Assembly: GCA_963808895.1 (NCBI GenBank)
Contig: CAWEHL010000001.1
Location: forward strand, 515,560 to 579,559
Source of the DNA: an uncultured Chloroflexia bacterium
GTDB lineage: Bacteria; Chloroflexota; Limnocylindria; Limnocylindrales; CSP1-4
Length of the DNA stretch: 64,000 nucleotides
Direction of reading: 5' to 3'
Positions 5,883 through 51,547 of this stretch are shown here, in pieces. The translations under genes were made by a program, and so were the position numbers. A model generated the notes under the pieces. It saw only the letters and a list, made by a program, of their open reading frames with translations. It did no database searches and had not been told where the DNA came from. Numbering within the stretch: position 1 is the first letter of the stretch; each line of letters starts with the position of its first letter.

Positions 5883-6773
5883 GTGGTCTTCGCCTTGTTT
5901 TCCGGCCTTCAGGCCGTCGAGGGTCTGATCCTGCCGCTGGCCGTGGGCTCGCACGCCGCGAACTACACCGCGGCCGCCGCGGCATGGCTGGCCGGCGGGG
6001 ACCCGTGGCAGGTCGGACCGCCGGCAGCGATCTACGCCGGTCCCCCGCCGATGCTCCTGCTATTCGTCCCGTTCGTCCCGCTACCCGTGGACCTGACACG
6101 CCTGGTGTGGGTCCTCGGGATGTTCCTCGTCGCGATCGGGGTGGTTCGGCGGCTCGGTCTGCCGGGCTACTGGGTCGCGTTCCCGCCGATGTTCCAGGCG
6201 ATCTTCCTCGGCCATCCCGAAGTCCTCGTCGTCGCGCTACTCGTCCTCGGTGGCCCGCTGAGCGGGGTCGCCGCGGTGATCAAGCCGTATGCGGCCGCGC
6301 CGTTGCTCGCGGAGAAGCGCTGGTCGGCATTCCTGGTAGCCATCGCGGTCGTCCTCATCACCGCGCCCTTCTTGCCATGGGCGACGTTCGCCGCGGACCT
6401 TCCAGCCATCGCCGCGAACCTCGTGCGCCAGAACCACGGCGACTCCACGTTCGGGAGTCCGGTCCTGATCGCCCTCGCCATCCTCGCGCTGGTGAGCCTC
6501 GGCGTGCGACGCGGCCTATGGTTGAGCGTCCCGTTGCTATGGCCACTGGCGCAGCCGATGTACAAGACCGTGTCGTTGCCCGCGTTGTCGCCTTTCCTCG
6601 CGATCGCCTGGTCGATCCCAGTCCCTGGTCTCACGCTCGTCGGCGTGGTGATCGAAGCGATCGTGCTGCGATGGGCGTCGCGACGGCCGCTTCCGGTCTG
6701 GCTCATCCATGGCTTCGAGCCCGCGTCGATCCGCGGACCGTTCGGCAGCCCCACCCCTGACCCCGGAGTCTGA
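5883..6773 (+). CDS. DUF2029-like polytopic membrane protein, paralog A (putative small GT-C-type transferase)
   Basis: About 8 hydrophobic spans. AAWLAGGDPW, RRLGLPGYWVAFPPM, ALLVLGGPLSG and ITAPFLPW are shared with the protein at 11488..12381. The frame stays open upstream to 5814, so the start is uncertain. Confidence 0.6.
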   Translation: MVFALFSGLQAVEGLILPLAVGSHAANYTAAAAAWLAGGDPWQVGPPAAIYAGPPPMLLLFVPFVPLPVDLTRLVWVLGMFLVAIGVVRRLGLPGYWVAFPPMFQAIFLGHPEVLVVALLVLGGPLSGVAAVIKPYAAAPLLAEKRWSAFLVAIAVVLITAPFLPWATFAADLPAIAANLVRQNHGDSTFGSPVLIALAILALVSLGVRRGLWLSVPLLWPLAQPMYKTVSLPALSPFLAIAWSIPVPGLTLVGVVIEAIVLRWASRRPLPVWLIHGFEPASIRGPFGSPTPDPGV

Positions 6774-16134: not shown

Positions 16135-18165
16135 TCACGCCTCGCGTACCGCTGGCACGAACCACCCGACCAGACCGGCTGCTGCGGTGACCAGCCCGAA
16201 GGCCGCGATCACCGTCGTCACCCCGACCGCTTCCGCGAGGACGCCACCGAGGCCGATCGCGAGCGTCATCGCCCCGAACACGAGAGAGAACCGGAATCCG
16301 ACGACCCGCCCGATCAGATTGCCGGGCGTCCGCTCCTGGAAGAGGGTCTGGCTCGGGATGATGAACAACATGTTCGCGATCCCGATCCCGAACGCGATCG
16401 ACAGGACGACGCCGAGGTTGCCGGACAGCGCCATGACCGTCGTCAGCAAGCCGAGCACGACGTAGCCCACGATGATCATCCGGCCCTTCGCGAGACGCAC
16501 GCCGACCAGCCCGATGACGAAGCCGCCGATCAGGTTGCCGGCACCCTGGCTGCCCTCGATGAAGCCGTAGACCGCGCGCCAGTCGAAGCCCTGCCCGCCG
16601 AAGACGTGCTCTGCGAACACCGCGGTCTGGCCGATCAGTACGCCGACGGTCAGCTGCGCCACGACGGCGAGGAGCGTGTTCGCGAGCAGCACAGGCTCGT
16701 TCCGGAGGAACCGCCAGCCCGTCAGGAGTTCCTCGCGGAACCCGGCCGCGTCGGCGTCGGATCGGGCACCCGTCGGCGCCTCGGACTGGACGGGACGCGG
16801 GATCAGCGTGCTGAGCAGCAGTGCCGAGGCGAGGTAGGTCGCCCCGTCGAACCAGAACGCGATCGACACCGCGTCGGCTACAACGGCGACGAACAGCCCG
16901 GCCAGTGGAAAGCCGATGACATCCGCCAAGGTCTCGCCGATCCACAACGCCGAGTTGGCGGTCAGCAGCTCGTCCTCTCGGACGAGGCGAGGCAGGATGG
17001 CGATGCGCGCCGGGCGGAAGAAGATCGAGATCGTCGTCAGCAGGAAGGCAAGCGGATAGACGAGCCAGATGTTGGCCGTGGCGGCGATCGGCATGATGAA
17101 CACGACCGCTGCGCGGAGGATGTCGCTGACGACGAGGACCTCGCGGTGGTCCCAGCGGTCGACGAGCGTCCCGGCGATCGGCCCGAACAGCAGGTTCGGC
17201 AGCGTCGCCGACACGAATACGAGCGCGACGGCGATCGGTGAACCCGTCAGCACGAAGACGATGGCTGCGATGGCGACCTGGTGGACGCGGTCGCCGAAGA
17301 GCGAGATCAGCTGGCCCGACCAGAGGGCGCTGAACGAGCCATTGAGCGCCAGCCGGACATACGGGTGGCGGCGAAGCCTCGCGAGGACGTCCGGTGACAG
17401 TCCGGGGATCGAGATCGGCCGGGTCGGCGGCGCTTCGACGACGAGAGCTGGCGTTGCGCCGGGGCCGGCCAGCCGTTGGCGATCGGCGCCGAGGACCGTC
17501 GGTCGTTGGAGCGATGCCGACTGCTCGAGGCCCGGAGCGAGGCCGGACGGTCGATAGCCGATCGCGCGGTCGGCAGCGAGGCGCCGCCGCAGGTCGGCGT
17601 CCTGCTGCTCCTCGGTCGGCGTCGGGACGCGGACCACGCCGGCGAACAGGAAGAAGGCGAGCCCGAGCCCCAGGAAGAGGTCGCCGAGGGAGTACACGTT
17701 CTGGATGAACGAGATCGGGACGGGGATGACGTCGCCGAGGATCAGCAGTCGCCCGAGGAAGTCCTGTGCGCTCGGGTCGACGATCACGTGGAACGAGCGC
17801 GTGACGTCGGCAGGCGTGAGCCCGGCGTACGCGAGCGCGGGCTCCCAGATCGGCATGTACCCGCCGTTGACCAGGATCACGAGCCCGTTCGAGAGCACGC
17901 CGAGGAAGGCGAGGCTCAGACCGGGGTAGGTCCGGTTGACCCAGAGAGGGATCAGCAGCACGCCAAAGGCGGCGACGAGCAGCGGGAGGCGCAACGCCTC
18001 GACGACGTCGATGCCCGCGTTGAGCGCGGCCTCAGTCGCGAAGCGGAGCACGAGCGCTGCGACGAGCAAGCCCGTCCAGCGAAGCTGGATCTCGGCGAGG
18101 TTGCGAAGGCGCCCGCCGGCGAGAAGCCCGAGGACGAGCCCGAGCAGGATCCCGCCGATCAGCAT
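16135..18165 (-). CDS. DUF5317-like membrane domain fused to an MFS transporter (MFS_3/EntS-like)
   Basis: The N-terminal ~190 aa (GRLRNLAEIQLRW..., NGLVILVNGGYMPIW, DVIPVP) resemble DUF5317. These are followed by about 12 TM MFS spans. Only 4 nt separate it from the upstream HD-GYP stop. Confidence 0.75.
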   Translation of the reverse strand: MLIGGILLGLVLGLLAGGRLRNLAEIQLRWTGLLVAALVLRFATEAALNAGIDVVEALRLPLLVAAFGVLLIPLWVNRTYPGLSLAFLGVLSNGLVILVNGGYMPIWEPALAYAGLTPADVTRSFHVIVDPSAQDFLGRLLILGDVIPVPISFIQNVYSLGDLFLGLGLAFFLFAGVVRVPTPTEEQQDADLRRRLAADRAIGYRPSGLAPGLEQSASLQRPTVLGADRQRLAGPGATPALVVEAPPTRPISIPGLSPDVLARLRRHPYVRLALNGSFSALWSGQLISLFGDRVHQVAIAAIVFVLTGSPIAVALVFVSATLPNLLFGPIAGTLVDRWDHREVLVVSDILRAAVVFIMPIAATANIWLVYPLAFLLTTISIFFRPARIAILPRLVREDELLTANSALWIGETLADVIGFPLAGLFVAVVADAVSIAFWFDGATYLASALLLSTLIPRPVQSEAPTGARSDADAAGFREELLTGWRFLRNEPVLLANTLLAVVAQLTVGVLIGQTAVFAEHVFGGQGFDWRAVYGFIEGSQGAGNLIGGFVIGLVGVRLAKGRMIIVGYVVLGLLTTVMALSGNLGVVLSIAFGIGIANMLFIIPSQTLFQERTPGNLIGRVVGFRFSLVFGAMTLAIGLGGVLAEAVGVTTVIAAFGLVTAAAGLVGWFVPAVREA

Positions 18166-26978: not shown

Positions 26979-27629
26979 TTAGTCGAGTTTGCGGATGACG
27001 CCGATCAACTTTCCCTGGATCCGAACGTCGTCGTAGAACTGAGGCGGGTACTCAGGGTTCGCCGGCTGGAGGCGGATCTTGTCCTTCTCCTTGAAGAACC
27101 GCTTCAGGGTGACCGCGTTCTCCTCCACCTGGGCGACCACGATGTCCCCGTTCCGGGCGGTCGACTGCGGGCGGATCAGTACGAAGTCGCCGTCGGCGAT
27201 GTGGGCTTCGATCATCGAATCGCCGCGGACGCGAAGGACGTATGCATCGCCGCTCGGCGCCAGCATGTCAGGGACCGCGAGGGTCTCTGATGCGTCCTGG
27301 TAGGCCTCGATCGGTCCGCCCGCCGCGATCTCCCCGATGATCGGCACGACGCGCGAATCGGCGGTCGTCGCTTGCGGGACCAGCTCGCTCGAGAGTCCGA
27401 GACGGATCGCGGCTGTCGGGGTCAGCCTGATGGCGCGGCTCTGACCCTCGCCGCGCTCGAGATACCCCTCGCGGACCAGCATCTGGAGGTGATGGTGGAC
27501 GGCCGACGTCGAGGCGAGGCCCACCGCCTGCATGATCTCGCGCACCGACGGCGGATACCCGCGCGCCCGCAGCGTTGCGGCGATGAAGTCCAGGATCCTC
27601 AGTTTTCGTTCGGCGTCGTGCTTCGTCAC
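26979..27629 (-). CDS. lexA: LexA repressor
   Basis: wHTH VREIMQAVGLASTSAVHHHLQML, cleavage site AAG, catalytic VRGDSM and LKRF. GTG 27629 lies 5 nt after AAGGAGG. The track ATGs at 27650/27653 fall inside the -10 box. Confidence 0.92.
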   Translation of the reverse strand: MTKHDAERKLRILDFIAATLRARGYPPSVREIMQAVGLASTSAVHHHLQMLVREGYLERGEGQSRAIRLTPTAAIRLGLSSELVPQATTADSRVVPIIGEIAAGGPIEAYQDASETLAVPDMLAPSGDAYVLRVRGDSMIEAHIADGDFVLIRPQSTARNGDIVVAQVEENAVTLKRFFKEKDKIRLQPANPEYPPQFYDDVRIQGKLIGVIRKLD

Positions 27630-27648: not shown

Positions 27649-27676
27649 ATCATACCGAACGAACGTTCGATGTCAA
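27649..27676 (-). promoter_or_regulatory. lexA promoter TTGACA-N16-TATGAT with an SOS box (27655..27670) filling the spacer
   Basis: Minus strand reads TTGACA TCGAACGTTCGTTCGG TATGAT. TCGAAC-N4-GTTCGR is the actinobacterial LexA site. Confidence 0.8.
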
Positions 27677-27746
27677 GGATCCTCGTCGGAGCGCACGAAG
27701 CATCGCTGGTAGACTCCCGGTCCTTACGGACAAGGAGGTCGACAGC

Positions 27747-28244
27747 GTGGCGAGCAGGCGGGGCATCGGGCGAGCGAGCATCAGTCGGGTCGTGTCGCTG
27801 CTCGCGTTCCTGCCGGTCGCCAGTCGCGTCCCCGACTACGCCCGCCTCATCGGCGCCCTGGTGATCGATGACCGGATGCCGGCCGATCGCAAGCTCATGC
27901 TCGGTGCCGCTGCCGGGTACCTCGTCCTCGGCCGCGACCTGATCCCCGACACGATCCCGATCATCGGCGGGCTCGACGACCTCGTCGTGGTCGTGCTGGC
28001 CGTCGACGTCTTCCTCGATGGTGTCCCGCCCGAGCTCCTCCAGGAGAAGCTCGACGACCTCGCGATCGACCGCGTGGCCTTCGATCGCGACGTCGCCCAG
28101 ATCCGGCGCTTGACGCCCGGCCCTGTCCGTCGGACCATCCGCCGCGTCCCCGGCCTCATCTCGGCCGCCGGGCGCGCTATCGAACGATCCGGCGTCGTGC
28201 CTCGCACGCGCGCGTGGATCAACAAGGAGGAGCCCACTACTTGA
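27747..28244 (+). CDS. DUF1232 (YkvA-like) membrane protein
   Basis: GTG 8 nt after AAGGAGG. LIPDTIPIIGGLDDLVVVVLAVD motif. TAGACT -10-like hexamer at 27710..27715. Confidence 0.75.
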   Translation: MASRRGIGRASISRVVSLLAFLPVASRVPDYARLIGALVIDDRMPADRKLMLGAAAGYLVLGRDLIPDTIPIIGGLDDLVVVVLAVDVFLDGVPPELLQEKLDDLAIDRVAFDRDVAQIRRLTPGPVRRTIRRVPGLISAAGRAIERSGVVPRTRAWINKEEPTT

Positions 28245-30085: not shown

Positions 30086-31392
30086 ATGCGGACGATCCTC
30101 CACGTCGATCTGGACGCCTTCTTTGCCGCCGTCGAGCAACGCGACCGCCCCGAGCTGCGGGGCAAGCCGGTCATCGTCGGTGGCGTCCCGCCCGGCCGTG
30201 GTGTCGTCTCGGCGGCGTCCTATGAGGCACGTGCGTTCGGCGTCCATTCGGCGATGTCGGTGACCGAGGCCTATCGGCGTTGCCCGCACGGCGTCTTCCT
30301 GCCGGTCGACGGGCGTCGGTATCAGCAGGCGTCGCGCGACGTCATGGCCATCCTTCGGCGCTTCACGCCACAGGTCGAACCGATCTCGATCGACGAAGCG
30401 TTCCTCGACGTGACGGGTTCGCGGCCCCTGTTCGGCGAAGGACCCGAGATCGCGGCGTCGATCAAGAGTGGCGGTCCGCGCCGAGGTCGGCTTGACGGCG
30501 TCGGTGGGGGTCGCGACCACGAAGCTCGTAGCGAAGATCGCCTCCGACCTGCGCAAGCCCGACGGGCTCGTCGTCGTCGCGCCGGGGGACGAGGCGGCGT
30601 TCCTCGCGCCCTTGCCGATCGGGCGCCTGTGGGGCGTCGGCGAGAAGACGGCGACCGTCCTTGCCGAGTACGGCGTCAAGACCATCGGCGATCTCGCGGA
30701 CCTCTCGCCAGATCTCCTCGTCCGAAGGTTCGGCAAGCACGGCGCGTCGCTCGTCTCGCGTGCCGTCGGGCTGGACGACGACCCCGTCCACGAGGGTGAT
30801 CCAGCGAAGTCCGTCGGCCACGAGACGACGTTCGACGTCGATACGTCCGACCCCGACGTCATCGAACGGACCTTGCTTGCGCTCAGCGATGGCGTCGCCG
30901 GGCGCCTGCGGTCCGCGGGCGTGCGCGCATCCACGATCGCTGTCAAGGTCCGCGATTCCTCGTTCAGGACGGTGACCCGCCAGCGCACCCTTCCCGAGCC
31001 GACCGATCTGACCGAGCCGATCTACCGGGCTGCCTTGGAGCTGGCGCGTCCCCAGGTGCGCGGGATCCGGGTCCGGCTGCTCGGGGTGACCGCCTCGAAT
31101 CTCGGCGAGCGCGAGCAGATGACGATGTTCGCGGAGACCGAGCCACGCACGCCGGAAGGCGATCGAGGCCGCTGATGCGGTCCGTCGGCGCTACGGCTCC
31201 AAGGCCGTGACACGCGGCCGATTGGTCGGAGCGGGCCTTCCCGCGCCGTTCGAGCGTGATCCACGGAACCCGCTCGACCGGCGGGCTCGAGGCGTGCCGA
31301 CCGACGACGTCGATGCGGATCCGGACGCTCCGGACGGGCGTGACACCCTAGCTGACACAGCGCTCGACGACATTCCGCCCGACGACGCTTGA
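30086..31392 (+). pseudogene. dinB: DNA polymerase IV (DinB), two +1 frame disruptions as assembled (~30468 and ~31145)
   Basis: [15 protein letters not shown] and SIDEAFLDV (catalytic), then [19 protein letters not shown] in the next frame and AIEAADAVRRRYG in the third. The span is 1307 nt (2 mod 3). The 3' end is uncertain. Confidence 0.8.
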
Positions 31393-31441
31393 CATCGAAC
31401 GTCTGTTCGGTCTAGTGTCGCCACATCGAACAGATGTTCTG
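31389..31441 (+). promoter_or_regulatory. Promoter TTGACA..TAGTGT with two SOS boxes (31395..31410 TCGAACGTCTGTTCGG; 31426..31441 TCGAACAGATGTTCTG)
   Basis: The first 22 nt (TTGACATCGAACGTCTGTTCGG) differ at only 2 positions from the lexA promoter/operator. The second box lies just downstream of the -10. Confidence 0.75.
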
Positions 31442-31493
31442 TCGGCCGAGTGCTCCGGACGATGGGTCGAAGACGACGCCGAAGGAGGCCGAT

Positions 31494-31763
31494 ATGGCAT
31501 TCACCCGTGTCGAGCCGGTCGCGGTCCACGTCCGGACTGACTGGTTCAGCGGTCGTCCCCGGGAGATCACCTGGGGCGCCGAACGACTACCGATCACCCA
31601 CCTTGCCGCCATCCGTGAGGAAGCCGCGGCGTATCCGGTGATCACCGGGCCGCGGACCCTGTTCGAGGTGGAGACGCCTCGCGCGAGGGTGGCCCTTTCG
31701 TATCAGCACCGGTCCAAGCGCTGGACCGTCACGGCCCTCGACGAGGAACGTCGAGCGGCCTGA
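31494..31763 (+). CDS. 89-aa SOS-box-controlled protein of unknown function
   Basis: ATG 5 nt after GAAGGAGG. MAFTRVEPVAVHVRTDWFSGRPREITWGAERLPITHLAAIREE... I recognise no motif. Confidence 0.7.
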   Translation: MAFTRVEPVAVHVRTDWFSGRPREITWGAERLPITHLAAIREEAAAYPVITGPRTLFEVETPRARVALSYQHRSKRWTVTALDEERRAA

Positions 31764-32007: not shown

Positions 32008-32719
32008 ATGTTGCGGGTTGCAACCTACAATCGCGCGGTGCATCCCGACAGCAATGGAGGTCGGTTCCGCGACCTCACGATCGACCAGTTCGCGGCTCGG
32101 CTCGCGTCATCCGATCCTGTCCCCGGTGGGGGGAGCGCCTCCGCAGTAGCCGCTGCGCTCGGAGCCAGCCTTGTGACGATGGTCGCGTCGCTGACCACGG
32201 GTCGTCCGAAGTACGTGGACCACGAGCCGATGCTGGCGTGGGCACTCGAGATCGGTCCCAGGCTGTCGGAGCGCTTCCTGGCCCTCGCCGACGAGGACGC
32301 AGAGGCCTACGCGGGATACGCGGCGGCGCTTGAAACTGTCGCGCGAAACCGAGTCGGAGATCGAGGCGCGCAGACAGGCGATGCGGGCCGCTGCCCGCGC
32401 CGCATCCGAGGCGCCCTTGCGTTGCCTCGAAGCGTGCGTCGACCTGGTCGCGGCTGCGGAAGCCCTTGCCGGCCGCAGCAACCCCAACGCGGCGAGTGAC
32501 GTCGATGTCGCCGCCCTGCTCGGGGAGGCGGCAGCTCGCGGAGCCGCGGCCAATGTGCTGATCAACCTCCCATCGACGGGCGACCCCGAATACGAGGAAG
32601 CGACGACGGTACGTGTCACCGAGCTGCTATCGGCGATCGAGGATCTCGCGTCGCGTGCACACCAGGCGGTCGCCTCAGGGGAGCCGCGCGACCCGGTCGA
32701 GCCGGTCGGACGGGCGTGA
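32008..32719 (+). pseudogene. Formiminotetrahydrofolate cyclodeaminase family protein, one +1 frame disruption near 32328
   Basis: PVPGGGSASAVAAALGASLVTMVASLT in frame 1, then SEAPLRCLEACVDLV...NPNAASDVDVAALL in the next frame. The span is 712 nt (1 mod 3). The start may be 32038. Confidence 0.75.
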
Positions 32720-48338: not shown

Positions 48339-50021
48339 CTACATCGACTCGGGCGCTGAGATCCCGAGCAGCCCGAGCGTCCTCGCGAGCGTGACCTGCG
48401 TCGCCCGGGCGAGGGCGAGGCGTGAGGCCGACCGGCCCGGATCGTCCGGATCGACGACACGGGCGTCGCGATAGAACGCATGGAACGCGGTCGCGAGCTG
48501 CGTCGCATACGTCGTGATGCCGTGGGTCTCTTCCGCGATGACCGCGTCCTCGACGACTTCCGGTAGGCGAACGACCTCCCGCGCGAGGGCGGCCTCCGGG
48601 CCGTCGGCGAGCGTCCCGGCGACCGTCGATGCCGGCTCGAGCCCGACCTCCGTCGCCTTGCGCAGGATCGACGCGATCCTTGCGTGGGCGTACTGCACGT
48701 AGTAGACGGGGTTCTCGTTGGACTGTTTCTTCGCGAGCTCGATGTCGAAGTCGATCGACGACGTGGCCCCGCGCGAGGCGAAGAACCAGCGAGCCGCGTC
48801 GACGCCCACCTCGGCCAGCAGTTCGTCGAGCGTGATGAACTCGCCGGCGCGCTTGGACATCGAGATCTCGACGCCGTCGCGAACGAACCGGACCCAGGAG
48901 TAGAGCAGCATCTGCACCGCGTCGATGTCATAGCCCATCGCCTTCGCGGCATTCCTGACGCGCGCCACCGTCCCGTGGTGGTCGGCTCCCCAGATATAGA
49001 TCAGGTGGTCGAAGCCCCGGCTGAACTTCTCCGTGACGTAGCCGATATCGGCAGCGAAGTAGGTCGGCTGTCCGTTCGAGCGGTAGATGACGCGGTCCTT
49101 GTCGTCGCCGAGGTCGGTGCTCCGGAACCAGATGGCGCCGTCCTGCTCGTAGACGTATCCCCGCTCGCGCAGGCGCTCGACCGCTCGGGCGACCCATCCC
49201 TCCTCGTGGAGGGAGCGCTCCGTCGTCCAGACGTCGAAGTGGACGCCAAGGCGCTCGAGGCTGGCCTCGATGCCGCTGCGCACCTGGGCCGCCGCCCAGC
49301 GGCCGAGGACGTTCGACGTGTCCGCCTCAGGCGACGTCGCCTCCGCCCAGACCTCCGCCGGGACGGCCGACGCGAGGTCGTCGACGTAGTCGCCGCGATA
49401 GCCGTCGTCCGGAACGGGCTCACCGCGTCGGAGCGCCGCCACCGACGCGCCGAGCTGGTCGATCTGCCCACCCGAGTCGTTGAAGTAGTACTCCCGCGTG
49501 ACCTCCTGGCCGCCGGCCTCGAGGACCCGGCTGAGCAGGTCGCCGATGAACGCGCCGCGCGCGTTGCCGATGGTCAGCGGCCCGGTCGGGTTCGCCGACA
49601 CGAACTCGACGTTCACGCGCCGCGCGGAGATCGGCTCGACGCGACCCCATCGGTCGGGGTCGCTCAGGATCCCGTCGACGATCGCCTCGAGGGCGGTCGC
49701 CTTCAGCCGGACGTTGAGGAAGCCCGGCGGCGCCACCTCGGCTGCCTCGACCGGGGAGGCGTTCTGCGCTGAGCTCGCGTCGCGTACGAGCTTCGCGGCA
49801 AGCAGGGTGGCGAGCTCGAGCGGTGGCCGTCGGTACGGGCGTGCGAGCTTCATCGCGAGATTGGTCGAGAAGTCTCCGTGATCCGCGTCGGTCGGTCGCT
49901 CCACCTCGATCGCCGGGCGTGCATCGGCCTCGAGGGCTGCGAGCGAGCCGTCCTCGATCGCGAGCGCCCACGCCCGTTCGACGGCATGGCGTACCTGGGT
50001 GCGCAGAGGGGCCGGGGTCAC
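48339..50021 (-). CDS. argS: Arginine--tRNA ligase
   Basis: C-terminal 560 aa of track ORF 48339..51395. SANPTGPLTIGNARGA, YIWGADHHG, MSKRAGEF. GTG at 50021. Confidence 0.92.
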   Translation of the reverse strand: MTPAPLRTQVRHAVERAWALAIEDGSLAALEADARPAIEVERPTDADHGDFSTNLAMKLARPYRRPPLELATLLAAKLVRDASSAQNASPVEAAEVAPPGFLNVRLKATALEAIVDGILSDPDRWGRVEPISARRVNVEFVSANPTGPLTIGNARGAFIGDLLSRVLEAGGQEVTREYYFNDSGGQIDQLGASVAALRRGEPVPDDGYRGDYVDDLASAVPAEVWAEATSPEADTSNVLGRWAAAQVRSGIEASLERLGVHFDVWTTERSLHEEGWVARAVERLRERGYVYEQDGAIWFRSTDLGDDKDRVIYRSNGQPTYFAADIGYVTEKFSRGFDHLIYIWGADHHGTVARVRNAAKAMGYDIDAVQMLLYSWVRFVRDGVEISMSKRAGEFITLDELLAEVGVDAARWFFASRGATSSIDFDIELAKKQSNENPVYYVQYAHARIASILRKATEVGLEPASTVAGTLADGPEAALAREVVRLPEVVEDAVIAEETHGITTYATQLATAFHAFYRDARVVDPDDPGRSASRLALARATQVTLARTLGLLGISAPESM

Positions 50022-50315
50022 CGCGGCATCGTACCGGCGGAGGCAGGGGGACGTCGGTACCGGTGTGGGTCCTGGGCCGTCGGTCCGGGGGTCCTGGGTG
50101 ACCCTTCGTTGCTGGGCGTCAACGAAATCATGGCCGCCTGGGCGGTGGTGGTGGGACTGGTGTAGTCGCCGGTCGCCAGAGGTACTAGACCGGCCAGTAC
50201 CCGCGTGTGAATATCCGGCCCTCGTTCGGTGCACGGACACCCCGACAGGGGACAAGCGGCCGAAACGGGGGGACCACTCAACCAGAGGCTTCGGCCTCAG
50301 CTCGGGGACCGTCAC

Positions 50316-51125
50316 ATGTCGAGAACTCATTCCGGCGCACGATCGCGCCTCGCCCGCCGCCTGTCGTGGCTGGGCGTCGTCTCCATGATCGCGGTGGCGT
50401 TGCTCGCCCCGTCGACCTCGCCCGCGCTCGCGGCTGCGCCTGGCAACAACGCCACGGTGAAGATCGAGGATTCGGTCAACCCGAAGCCCGAGCCCGCGAA
50501 CGATCCGCACGTCTGCCAGTTCGACATCAAGTTCTACTTCGCGGACCCCGGGCAGGCCGGTGACTGGCACATCCAGTCGTGGCCTCCGACGGGCGACAAG
50601 ACGACCGTCCTCGAGGGGACGTACGACACCAACAGCCAGGGCTTCGATCGTCAGCCGACGAGCGGCTACTACTCGCTGCCGGACGGCCACTACAAGCTGT
50701 TCTGGAAGGGCGACGAGGAGAAGCTCTGGAAGCACAAGGTCTTCTGGGTCGAGTGCCAGCCGGCGCCGACCGAGACGCCCAAGCCCACCGAGACGGTGAA
50801 GCCGACCGAGACGCCCACGCCGACCGAGACGCCCAAGCCGACGAAGACGCCGTGCCCGCCCTCGGAGACGCCCAAGCCGACCGAAAAGCCCAAGCCGACC
50901 GAGACGACGCGGGTCGATCCCACGCCGAAGCCCACCGGTGACGTCGGGCCCTCGAGCGGAAAGACCAACCCGCCGCACGCGACCCTGCCCCCGACGGACA
51001 CGCTCGACGGTGCCTCCTCGGCGCCGGCGAGCGACAGCTGGCGGATCATCCTCCTCGCGATGGCCGGTCTGCTGACCGCCGCCCTGATGCTGACTCCGGC
51101 CCGCGCGGCCCGGAAGCAGGACTAG
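50316..51125 (+). CDS. Secreted protein: signal peptide, ~110-aa domain, Pro-Thr-Glu-Lys linker, C-terminal TLPxT..DxWR-TM-basic tail
   Basis: MSRTHSGARSRLARRLSWLGVVSMIAVALLAP..ALA-AAPG, HVCQFDIKFYF, KHKVFWVEC, PTETPKPTE repeats, TLPPTDTLDG..SDSWRIILLAMAGLLTAALMLTPARAARKQD. Confidence 0.8.
   Translation: MSRTHSGARSRLARRLSWLGVVSMIAVALLAPSTSPALAAAPGNNATVKIEDSVNPKPEPANDPHVCQFDIKFYFADPGQAGDWHIQSWPPTGDKTTVLEGTYDTNSQGFDRQPTSGYYSLPDGHYKLFWKGDEEKLWKHKVFWVECQPAPTETPKPTETVKPTETPTPTETPKPTKTPCPPSETPKPTEKPKPTETTRVDPTPKPTGDVGPSSGKTNPPHATLPPTDTLDGASSAPASDSWRIILLAMAGLLTAALMLTPARAARKQD
50764..50908 (+). repeat. Coding tandem repeats (about 18-nt units, PTETPK-type linker)
   Basis: ccgaccgagacgcccaag-like units are reiterated about 7 times. 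Confidence 0.8.
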
Positions 51126-51159
51126 CGTTCGCCGACCCGAGCGCCCGATAGCCTCGGTA

Positions 51160-51207
51160 TCCGAGCAGCCGACGACCGCCGCCCTCACCCGGCGGCGGTC
51201 GTCGTCC
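51160..51207 (+). repeat. 48-nt hairpin module, copy 1 (also a terminator candidate for 50316..51125)
   Basis: TCCGAGCAGCC + 13-bp stem GACGACCGCCGCC/GGCGGCGGTCGTC + GTCC, 35 nt after the stop. Confidence 0.7.
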
Positions 51208-51307
51208 ATCCGATTTCCCAGCTCGTGACGCGATCGTCGTGATCGCACCCCTGCGACCGCGCAGGAACGCCAGCGCTCGATGACCCGGAGTGTCCGAGCC
51301 GCTCTGG

Positions 51308-51354
51308 TCCGAGCAGCCGACGACCGTCGCCCTTCCCGGCGGCGGTCGTCGTCC
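51308..51354 (+). repeat. 47-nt hairpin module, copy 2
   Basis: Same flank TCCGAGCAGCC and same stem, with one substitution (a G-U pair in RNA) and a loop 1 nt shorter. Confidence 0.7.
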
Positions 51355-51547
51355 GTCTGCCAGGTGCACGAAATCGGTGCGTGACGGCACCGCAAGTGTC
51401 AACGGTTTGACGCTCGCGGTGACCCGAAAGTACTAGACGTGGACCCGGGACCATGGGACCATGCGCGGCCTCGGCTCCACGAGTGGGGGCTCTAGGCCGA
51501 GCCGTCATGCCCGAGGCGCACGCCTCACCTCTTGGGGACCGTATCGA

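Follow-up and report, generated by a model that had tools for sequence, protein, structure and literature searches.

A small Limnocylindria gene behind two predicted LexA operators and next to dinB likely encodes a divergent stand-alone ImuB-C protein

Stand-alone ImuB-C proteins form a class of small, beta-rich proteins in which a C-terminal Trp and two or more basic residues are conserved; their genes are found mostly beside dinB, and lexA is frequently part of the same operon (PMC3765255). The proteins have been predicted as partners of Y-family polymerases since 2013, and as members of modules of the type PolY-[ImuB-C]-RecA (PMC6511836). The founder of the superfamily is the C-terminal domain of ImuB in the ImuA-ImuB-DnaE2 system, a novel beta-barrel without relatives in the PDB, which is reported to be devoid of the SH3-like core of UmuD/YolD-type small subunits and which, in AlphaFold models, forms a protein-protein interface for DnaE2 and ImuA that mediates the contacts among subunits (PMC12926913). 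Here we describe a locus from an uncultured bacterium of the class Limnocylindria (Chloroflexota), on contig CAWEHL010000001.1 of assembly GCA_963808895.1. The window, i.e. the whole stretch of 64,000 nucleotides (nt) that was analysed, contains a gene for an 89-amino-acid (aa) protein that lies, as a preliminary description of the sequence had stated, immediately downstream of dinB, the latter ending at position 31392. We favour, with a probability of about 0.55, the reading that this gene encodes a LexA-gated, short-lived, ImuB-C-like small subunit of a variant PolY-RecA mutasome.

Weak but convergent similarities of three kinds suggest a relationship of the small protein with ImuB-C and DUF6504. 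Sub-threshold matches to the Pfam model PF20114 (DUF6504; profile length 103, gathering cut-off 24.2 bits), the sole model that several family members approach, were obtained for four of 33 diverse members, three of them at E 0.011-0.14; the best, P0143, scored 22.3 bits (E 1.7e-4) with residues 18-80 aligned to profile positions 24-100. The same model is the sole Pfam match (E 0.007-0.05) of three homologues of an 84-aa protein encoded in the operon lexA, 84-aa open reading frame (ORF), polY on plasmid pSD of Geobacter anodireducens, the 84-aa protein itself having no Pfam match. When the profile of the Limnocylindria family (an alignment of 61 diverse members; an earlier alignment held 33 sequences) was compared by hhalign with a profile of only four such Geobacter-type proteins, 62 collinear columns were aligned (residues 21-86 of the family with 22-83 of the Geobacter type; score 26.8, E 2.3e-4), with the invariant Pro and Trp matched and W77 placed on the conserved Trp of the Geobacter-type proteins. 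None of 150 column-shuffled profiles reached this score (null 10.4 ± 2.35, maximum 18.4), nor did any of 200 shuffles reach the observed score of the comparison made with the single sequence. The features by which ImuB-C is defined, namely a beta-rich domain of about 80-100 aa, a C-terminal Trp, basic residues and a dinB/lexA neighbourhood, are all present. We therefore consider it likely that the small protein is a divergent, DUF6504-like member of the stand-alone ImuB-C group, the HH-suite probability being only 44%. The statement of the preliminary description that the protein has no recognisable motif or transmembrane helix holds insofar as neither a transmembrane segment nor a Pfam match was found, but relatives do exist and would place it at the edge of the superfamily described in 2013. 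The short DUF proteins next to genes of Y-family polymerases that it mentioned correspond to an existing class, the stand-alone ImuB-C/DUF6504-like proteins (PMC3765255, PMC6511836).

The closest described counterparts of the small protein are the GSU0042-like stand-alone ImuB-C proteins of Geobacter, whose own link to ImuB-C was established at hidden Markov model (HMM) E-values of about 1e-4 to 1e-5 (PMC3765255). Both groups consist of all-beta proteins of about 85-90 aa with a C-terminal Trp, basic residues and no relative in the PDB, in both the gene adjoins that of an active DinB-type polymerase, with lexA nearby, and both are under SOS control, which is predicted in the case of the window gene. 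They differ in their arrangement: in Geobacter the small gene sits between lexA and polY in a single operon, whereas in Limnocylindria it follows the polymerase and has a two-operator promoter of its own, and the polymerase itself has no perfect LexA box. Moreover, a terminal -AA that is nearly universal in the Limnocylindria family is absent from the Geobacter proteins, the two share only about 19% identity, and the Limnocylindria family is restricted to its class. In ImuB the corresponding domain is attached to a polymerase that is inactive, and its partners are DnaE2 and ImuA, neither of which was seen at the window locus; no dnaE was found in the 64-kb window. The logic of a small SOS-induced subunit beside a Y-family polymerase is shared with UmuD'/UmuC (Pol V) and with YolD/YqjX and their polymerases YqjW/UvrX, and polymerases of the UmuC/YqjW type also have a C-terminal RecA-NT-like motif and a conserved tail. 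UmuD/UmuD' is a small subunit under proteolytic control, as is proposed for the small protein of Limnocylindria; neither UmuD' nor YolD/YqjX shows any sequence relationship to the latter. The recN gene of Escherichia coli, which is controlled by ClpXP, carries several SOS boxes, and such multi-operator SOS genes are tightly repressed; here the analogy is one of regulation only, the proteins and their functions being unrelated.

Two other families of small subunits were considered. YolD was rejected as a homologue: no match to PF08863 was found among the 33 members at E ≤1, and hhalign against the YolD of SPbeta gave a probability of 0.2%, the YolD control itself scoring 97 bits on its own Pfam model. 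Membership of the UmuD/S24-type peptidases is not supported, as neither the small protein nor any of the 33 members matched PF00717.

Nothing in the small-gene locus is conserved more strongly than the operators. Perfect boxes of the form GAAC-N4-GTTC, which is also the LexA motif of Dehalococcoides among the Chloroflexi, have an expected count of 0.79 in the 64-kb window; exactly three are found, one at lexA and two before the small gene. Locus counts given here refer to 82 non-redundant related loci of species-level relatives, 972 kb in total (among GTDB species representatives a relative is encoded in 179 stretches, and 80 of these 179 loci were fetched). They contain 220 perfect boxes, 165 of them before the small gene, 53 before lexA and two elsewhere. 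The conservation of the double box, which the preliminary description had proposed to survey, is complete, with two boxes at a spacing of 30-36 nt (mode 34, window 31) in 82 of 82 loci, and two boxes in distant subfamilies as well. The sequence CTTGACATCGAAC-N4-GTTCG is invariant across the 82 loci, and the layout of -35, box, -10 and box recurs in subfamilies that are only 33-41% identical (L086, L087, L088, also L089).

The 22-mer that begins with the -35 hexamer indeed differs from that of the lexA promoter at two positions, both of which fall into the N4 spacer of the box, and operator 2 begins 15 nt after the end of operator 1, as had been reported. Given that the likely -10 lies at 31413-31418, box 1 fills the spacer between -35 and -10, as it does at lexA, and box 2 covers approximately +1 to +15; the earlier assertion that box 2 overlaps the -10/+1 region is thus right for the transcription start but not for the -10. 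The stop codon of dinB (TGA, 31390-31392) is embedded in the TTGACA of the small gene. A generic, E. coli-type sigma-70 scanner missed this promoter on account of a -10 that is weak by the E. coli standard. In Firmicutes and Actinobacteria, GAAC-N4-GTTC is known as the LexA motif of the Gram-positive type (PMC3323433). Judged from their sequence, the palindromes, which lie over promoter elements and are kept in orthologues, fit a LexA regulon of the Gram-positive/Chloroflexi type, and LexA would be expected to bind at both boxes of the small gene.

Behind these operators the strong Shine-Dalgarno sequence, the ATG and the 89-aa ORF were all found as first described, residue for residue. Erosion of the ORF behind conserved boxes had been named as an observation that would point to another target; the opposite is the case, since the ORF is intact in 81 of 82 loci (86-95 codons) and evolves under purifying selection, with a median ratio of nonsynonymous to synonymous substitution rates (dN/dS) of about 0.14. 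The entropy at the three codon positions is 0.32, 0.26 and 1.06, respectively. Coding constraint, Shine-Dalgarno sequences and intact ORFs together identify the protein as the selected product, and a reading in which the locus makes only a small RNA (sRNA) is excluded for practical purposes.

Homologue searches returned from 606 to 1371 relatives. The search of 5.8 billion proteins yielded 606; the best 120 have 79-98% identity and a length of about 89 aa, and carry no other name than hypothetical protein of Candidatus Limnocylindrales or Chloroflexota. An exhaustive HMMER search of cluster representatives (1.8 billion) retrieved no more than 134 clusters; frameshifted fragments are common among them, and none comes from outside the Limnocylindria lineage. 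Limnocylindria are also the source of a second subfamily, which has 33-37% identity to the window protein, and a further search returned proteins of Limnocylindria only. On these searches, the family is confined to this class of soil bacteria. In nearly all loci the gene order is dnaB - lexA - DUF1232 - rplI - ... - dinB - small gene - FTCD_C - folD - fhs, with lexA 2.6-6.5 kb upstream of the small gene and FTCD_C at a distance of about 50 to about 1550 nt from it, and dinB is the direct upstream neighbour in nearly all of the 82 loci, those of distant subfamilies included. In L043 (3464-5217), and also in L054, L062 and L075, genes for a sigma factor of the extracytoplasmic-function type and an NHL-repeat, anti-sigma-like protein are inserted after dinB, and the two-box promoter remains with the small gene.

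The small protein is strongly basic (isoelectric point, pI, of 10.2; family median 10.5) and contains a GPR(T) motif; R41, E43, P53, R54 and W77 are invariant in the 61 diverse members and R76 is at least 90% conserved. Two AlphaFold2 runs, based on the alignments of 33 and 61 sequences, arrived at the same all-beta model of seven strands with a mean predicted local distance difference test score (pLDDT) of 81, which suggests a soluble beta protein without a hydrophobic helix. Searching with this model, Foldseek detected no relative in the PDB (best E 0.31, TM ≤0.41), and the best match in BFVD was a single uncharacterised phage protein (E 0.03); sequence searches of the PDB with the single protein and with the profile gave nothing meaningful. 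The empty Foldseek result against the PDB agrees with the reported novelty of the ImuB-C fold, as a consistency check only. The C-terminus ends in -AA in 308 of 334 members surveyed (92%), although the preceding residues and the lengths of the linker vary, which is the pattern expected of a terminal recognition signal. Residues 87-89 are disordered in the model (pLDDT <50). ClpX recognises the ssrA tag chiefly by its Ala-Ala-COOH (C-motif 1), and by sequence the exposed -AA of the small protein qualifies as an ssrA-like degron through which it would be proteolysed. For comparison, RecN levels are reported to be controlled by ClpXP, this SOS protein being toxic on overexpression, and ClpXP proteomics has reported instability across the SOS regulon (PMC10165496).

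DinB, the putative partner, is intact in relatives with about 443 aa (e.g., L001 4568-5899), and 67 intact DinB proteins of Limnocylindria, from which the tail consensus was derived, have a C-terminal extension in common. It contains the segment EREQLxLF, which we take to be a beta-clamp motif by its likeness to known QLxLF clamp motifs, a RecA-NT-like motif and a conserved tail (LPAPFERDPRNPLDRRARGV, including the segment LPAPFERDPRNPLDRR), followed by an acidic end, the last 45 aa having a net charge of -7. The RecA-NT-like segment is aligned by hhalign to residues 9-29 of E. coli RecA, i.e. to a helix and a strand (score 16.2); no alignment with the N-terminus of RecA was obtained when the DinB tail was compared with it by BLASTP. 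An architecture of clamp motif, RecA-NT and tail has been tied to polymerases that bind both RecA and a small subunit (Timinskas and Venclovas; PMC6511836), and by analogy with the tails of UmuC and YqjW (PMC6511836) the conserved tail is a candidate docking site for the small protein.

The window copy of dinB is split into three frames by single-base insertions near 30467 and 31149, and FTCD_C, like dinB intact in relatives, into two frames by another near 32330. Similar breaks occur in L003, another contig of the same long-read collection. The frameshifts in both genes probably represent long-read assembly errors; their genuine pseudogenisation is conceivable.

Taken together, these features suggest the following mechanism. 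In undamaged cells two LexA dimers would shut the promoter of the small gene, the one at box 1, in the -35/-10 spacer, blocking the binding of RNA polymerase and the one at box 2, at +1, blocking initiation or forming a roadblock. The gene would then be expressed only after strong or lasting activation of RecA, i.e. be induced late. The basic small protein would join the DinB-type polymerase and, with RecA, form a variant of the PolY-[ImuB-C]-RecA mutasome, in which it might act as the damage-licensed component of the complex, in the manner of UmuD' for UmuC. Its exposed C-terminal -AA, as an ssrA-like degron, would presumably direct it to ClpXP and clear the protein once LexA repression returns. 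An accessory factor of translesion synthesis is the best fit among the three functions that had been proposed for the gene. A more tentative extension, possible but in our view doubtful, is that the mutagenic switch in Limnocylindria is wired through the small subunit alone: DinB would be made without LexA control, and its conversion into a RecA-dependent mutasome would await the small protein, itself under double repression and timed by ClpXP. If this were true, the locus would represent a minimal Pol V-like system and give stand-alone ImuB-C a first defined role, with two operators and a degron placed on the accessory subunit and the polymerase free of both, unlike every described mutasome.

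Several observations weigh against the favoured reading. The window protein has no match in Pfam, NCBIfam or PHROGs, no family member reaches the gathering score of DUF6504 and most give no match to it, the hhalign probability of 44% was obtained against a template profile of just four sequences, and the connection of the small family to the C-terminal domain of ImuB would be drawn through the published one (PMC3765255). In the cited literature no experimentally defined function is given for stand-alone ImuB-C (PMC3765255, PMC6511836, PMC12926913). As the whole region is syntenic in the class, adjacency to dinB is only weak evidence of a functional link; nor does it mean that the two genes are co-regulated, since no perfect LexA box precedes dinB in any of the 82 loci. 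In the subfamily of P0200 (L089) the small gene lies beside rplI, with no dinB on the short contig, and the frameshifted dinB of the window contrasts with an intact small gene between the breaks in dinB and FTCD_C. The resemblance of the DinB segment to RecA-NT is weak, as three of 150 shuffles reach its score (null 9.1 ± 2.3), and the DinB tail has no match to Pfam DUF4113. Finally, the spacing of the operators, varying from 30 to 36 nt, has no fixed helical phasing; cooperative binding of LexA is therefore not implied, and box 2 appears to be placed relative to the transcription start rather than phased to box 1.

Some of these points would sit more comfortably with an SOS-induced sensor or binder of single-stranded or lesion-containing DNA that acts independently of DinB and recruits or shields repair factors, the adjacency to dinB being inherited synteny. 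The high pI of the protein and its family and the invariant Arg and Trp residues would suit such a role, as would the lack of a perfect LexA box before dinB, its frameshifts in the window, and the absence of dinB beside the gene at the P0200 locus; indeed, ImuB-C was proposed to bind DNA by Aravind et al., who also listed contexts free of a polymerase (PMC3765255). However, the gene directly follows dinB in nearly all loci, even in distant subfamilies, the literature links the architecture of the DinB tail to multi-subunit mutasomes (PMC6511836), and AlphaFold models make ImuB-C an interface between proteins (PMC12926913), so that we regard this explanation as unlikely. Another possibility is that the protein belongs to an orphan SOS family of Limnocylindria unrelated to ImuB-C, a modulator of RecA or LexA or a toxin, its similarities reflecting chance or convergence. 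In its favour, all profile matches are sub-threshold, with the hhalign probability at 44%, no relative of known function was found in PDB or BFVD and the family is confined to one class. Against it, the same Pfam model, out of 24,736, is approached by two groups independently, none of the 150 and 200 shuffles reached the hhalign scores, and there is agreement with ImuB-C in the Pro and Trp positions, in size and beta content and in the lexA/polY context. We hold this alternative to be distinctly unlikely.

The preliminary description had also considered a division inhibitor or an SOS toxin, which found no support in the form of a transmembrane segment, a partner gene or a family match. A cytoplasmic, SulA-like inhibitor of division or replication, toxic and hence under two operators and proteolysis, is nevertheless worth weighing, since a harmful protein might well be given two operators and a degron-like -AA, the gene is a small, solitary and lineage-specific one, and no recognisable homologue of SulA or YneA was seen in the neighbourhood of lexA. 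The known inhibitors YneA, SosA, DivS and ChiZ are membrane proteins usually encoded divergently from lexA. The small protein, which has no match to SulA, LysM or any other inhibitor family, no transmembrane helix and a gene that is not divergent from lexA, is not supported as a member of either type; the lexA-divergent position is held by a DUF1232 membrane protein, and the convergent similarity to ImuB-C/DUF6504 argues further against a checkpoint effector, which we hold to be very unlikely. That the ORF has no functional product and the boxes serve an sRNA or the downstream genes FTCD_C-folD-fhs could be argued from a conserved motif in the 5'-untranslated region (5'-UTR), from the folate genes that always follow, and from the want of a canonical terminator after the ORF. 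This extremely unlikely reading is largely refuted by the coding signal (dN/dS 0.14, intact ORFs in 81 of 82 loci, Shine-Dalgarno sequences in all), and the distance to FTCD_C is variable and the 5'-UTR motif shows neither an Rfam match nor covariation.

Modules of the PolY-ImuB-C type had already been predicted by comparative genomics. What appears to be new, as far as sequence comparison goes, is a divergent class-specific family that current Pfam and NCBIfam models miss, an accessory gene with its own promoter and two predicted operators next to a polymerase that has none, and the near-universal terminal -AA. The family adds Limnocylindria, an abundant class in soil in which the gene is annotated as hypothetical, to the predicted partners of Y-family polymerases, and its clean regulatory features, together with the motifs in the DinB tail, yield claims on a licensed subunit, its lifetime and its docking site. 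If confirmed, induced mutagenesis would be controllable through the accessory subunit instead of the polymerase, and there would be grounds to extend the DUF6504/ImuB-C models to Chloroflexota.

Table 1. Positions of the small gene, its control elements and the neighbouring SOS genes in the window.
Feature	Position	Strand	Remarks
lexA	26979..27629	-	216 aa from the probable start GTG 27629, preceded by AAGGAGG
lexA promoter/operator TTGACA-TCGAACGTTCGTTCGG-TATGAT	27676..27649	-	perfect box before lexA in 53 related loci
dinB (DinB-type Y-family polymerase)	30086..31392	+	broken in the window by two 1-nt insertions
Beta-clamp-binding-type motif of DinB	31116..31130	+	QMTMF in the window; EREQLxLF in relatives
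RecA-NT-like motif AIEAADAVRRRYGSKAVTRGRLVG in the C-terminal extension of DinB	31159..31230	+	consensus AIEAADAVRRRYGxxAVTRxRLVG
Conserved DinB tail LPAPFERDPRNPLDRRARGV	31237..31296	+	columns at least 80% conserved; acidic end after the tail
-35 hexamer TTGACA of the small gene	31389..31394	+	invariant in 82/82 loci; identical to the lexA -35
Predicted LexA operator 1 TCGAACGTCTGTTCGG	31395..31410	+	core GAAC-N4-GTTC at 31397-31408; directly after the -35
Probable -10 TAGTGT (TANNNT type)	31413..31418	+	18 nt from the -35; TANNNT in most relatives
Predicted LexA operator 2 TCGAACAGATGTTCTG	31426..31441	+	core at 31428-31439; over the predicted start, about +1 to +15
5'-UTR motif TGTCGGnCGAGTGCCCCGGACGAC	31440..31465	+	conserved at the same position in L001-L085; possibly a weak hairpin
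Shine-Dalgarno sequence GAAGGAGG of the small gene	31481..31488	+	similar motif ≤20 nt from the start in 81/81 intact orthologues
Coding sequence of the 89-aa small protein	31494..31763	+	ATG 31494, stop 31761-31763; basic, predicted all-beta, C-terminal -RAA

GTG 27629 is the probable start of lexA because the ATG at 27653, with which the longest ORF begins, lies inside the TATGAT of the -10. The LexA of the window scores 115.6 bits for Peptidase_S24 (PF00717), and that of L091 has 217 aa. A gene for a DUF1232 membrane protein (window ~27728-28225, plus strand; L001 2235-2732), followed by rplI, is divergent from lexA, with only about 60 nt between it and the lexA operator. SOS division inhibitors occupy this site in Firmicutes and Actinobacteria, and by its matching position the DUF1232 gene is a candidate member of the LexA regulon. 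One sub-clade of 12 loci (L036, L038, L041-L043, L046, L047, L054, L059, L062, L069 and L070 being examples) has a LexA-like site with one mismatch, GAACATCCGGTC, about 51-71 nt upstream of dinB; no comparable site precedes dinB in the window or its clade.

The 5'-UTR motif TGTCGGnCGAGTGCCCCGGACGAC is kept in the main subfamily and absent from distant subfamilies. A stem of the form GTCGnCC/GGnCGAC in this region has only marginal support by covariation, which comes from pair counts on a hand-drawn hairpin; a covariation analysis found none, and the motif has no match in Rfam. Its GUGCC could alternatively pair with the AUGGCA of the start region. After the small ORF, a scanner detected no canonical terminator, and the hairpin located there is no more stable than those of shuffled sequences.

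Searches for further ImuB-C relatives gave little. A literature search for the term DUF6504 found no paper, tblastn of P0224 and P0143 against plasmids returned nothing usable, and a metagenome scan for Geobacter-type ImuB-C produced only three loci, one of them frameshifted. Geobacter-type stand-alone ImuB-C genes at L094 (2341-2595) and L098 (2495-2764) have no above-threshold Pfam match. The homologue on pPRO1 of Pelobacter is unannotated and lies beside a gene for integration host factor (IHF), with no lexA or polY adjoining. Apparent Rosetta-stone fusions of the small protein (P0188, P0153, P0168 and P0234) were rejected as frameshift or gene-call chimeras or as repeat proteins.

In the distant-subfamily locus L091 the order is lexA - alkZ-like - dinB - small gene, the AlkZ-like gene (6106-6684) belonging to a family of interstrand-crosslink glycosylases. 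Typical Limnocylindria loci also occur in metagenome-assembled genomes labelled as Patescibacteria, Saccharimonadales, Methylomirabilota and Verrucomicrobiia (L011, L025, L055 and L058), which are probably binning or labelling errors. Elsewhere in the window, an ORF of 1017 aa (48339-51395, minus strand) contains domains of arginyl-tRNA synthetase only from residue 475 onwards, and another (16135-18165, minus strand) joins DUF5317 to a transporter of the major facilitator superfamily; both may be over-extended, or fused through sequence errors like those in dinB.

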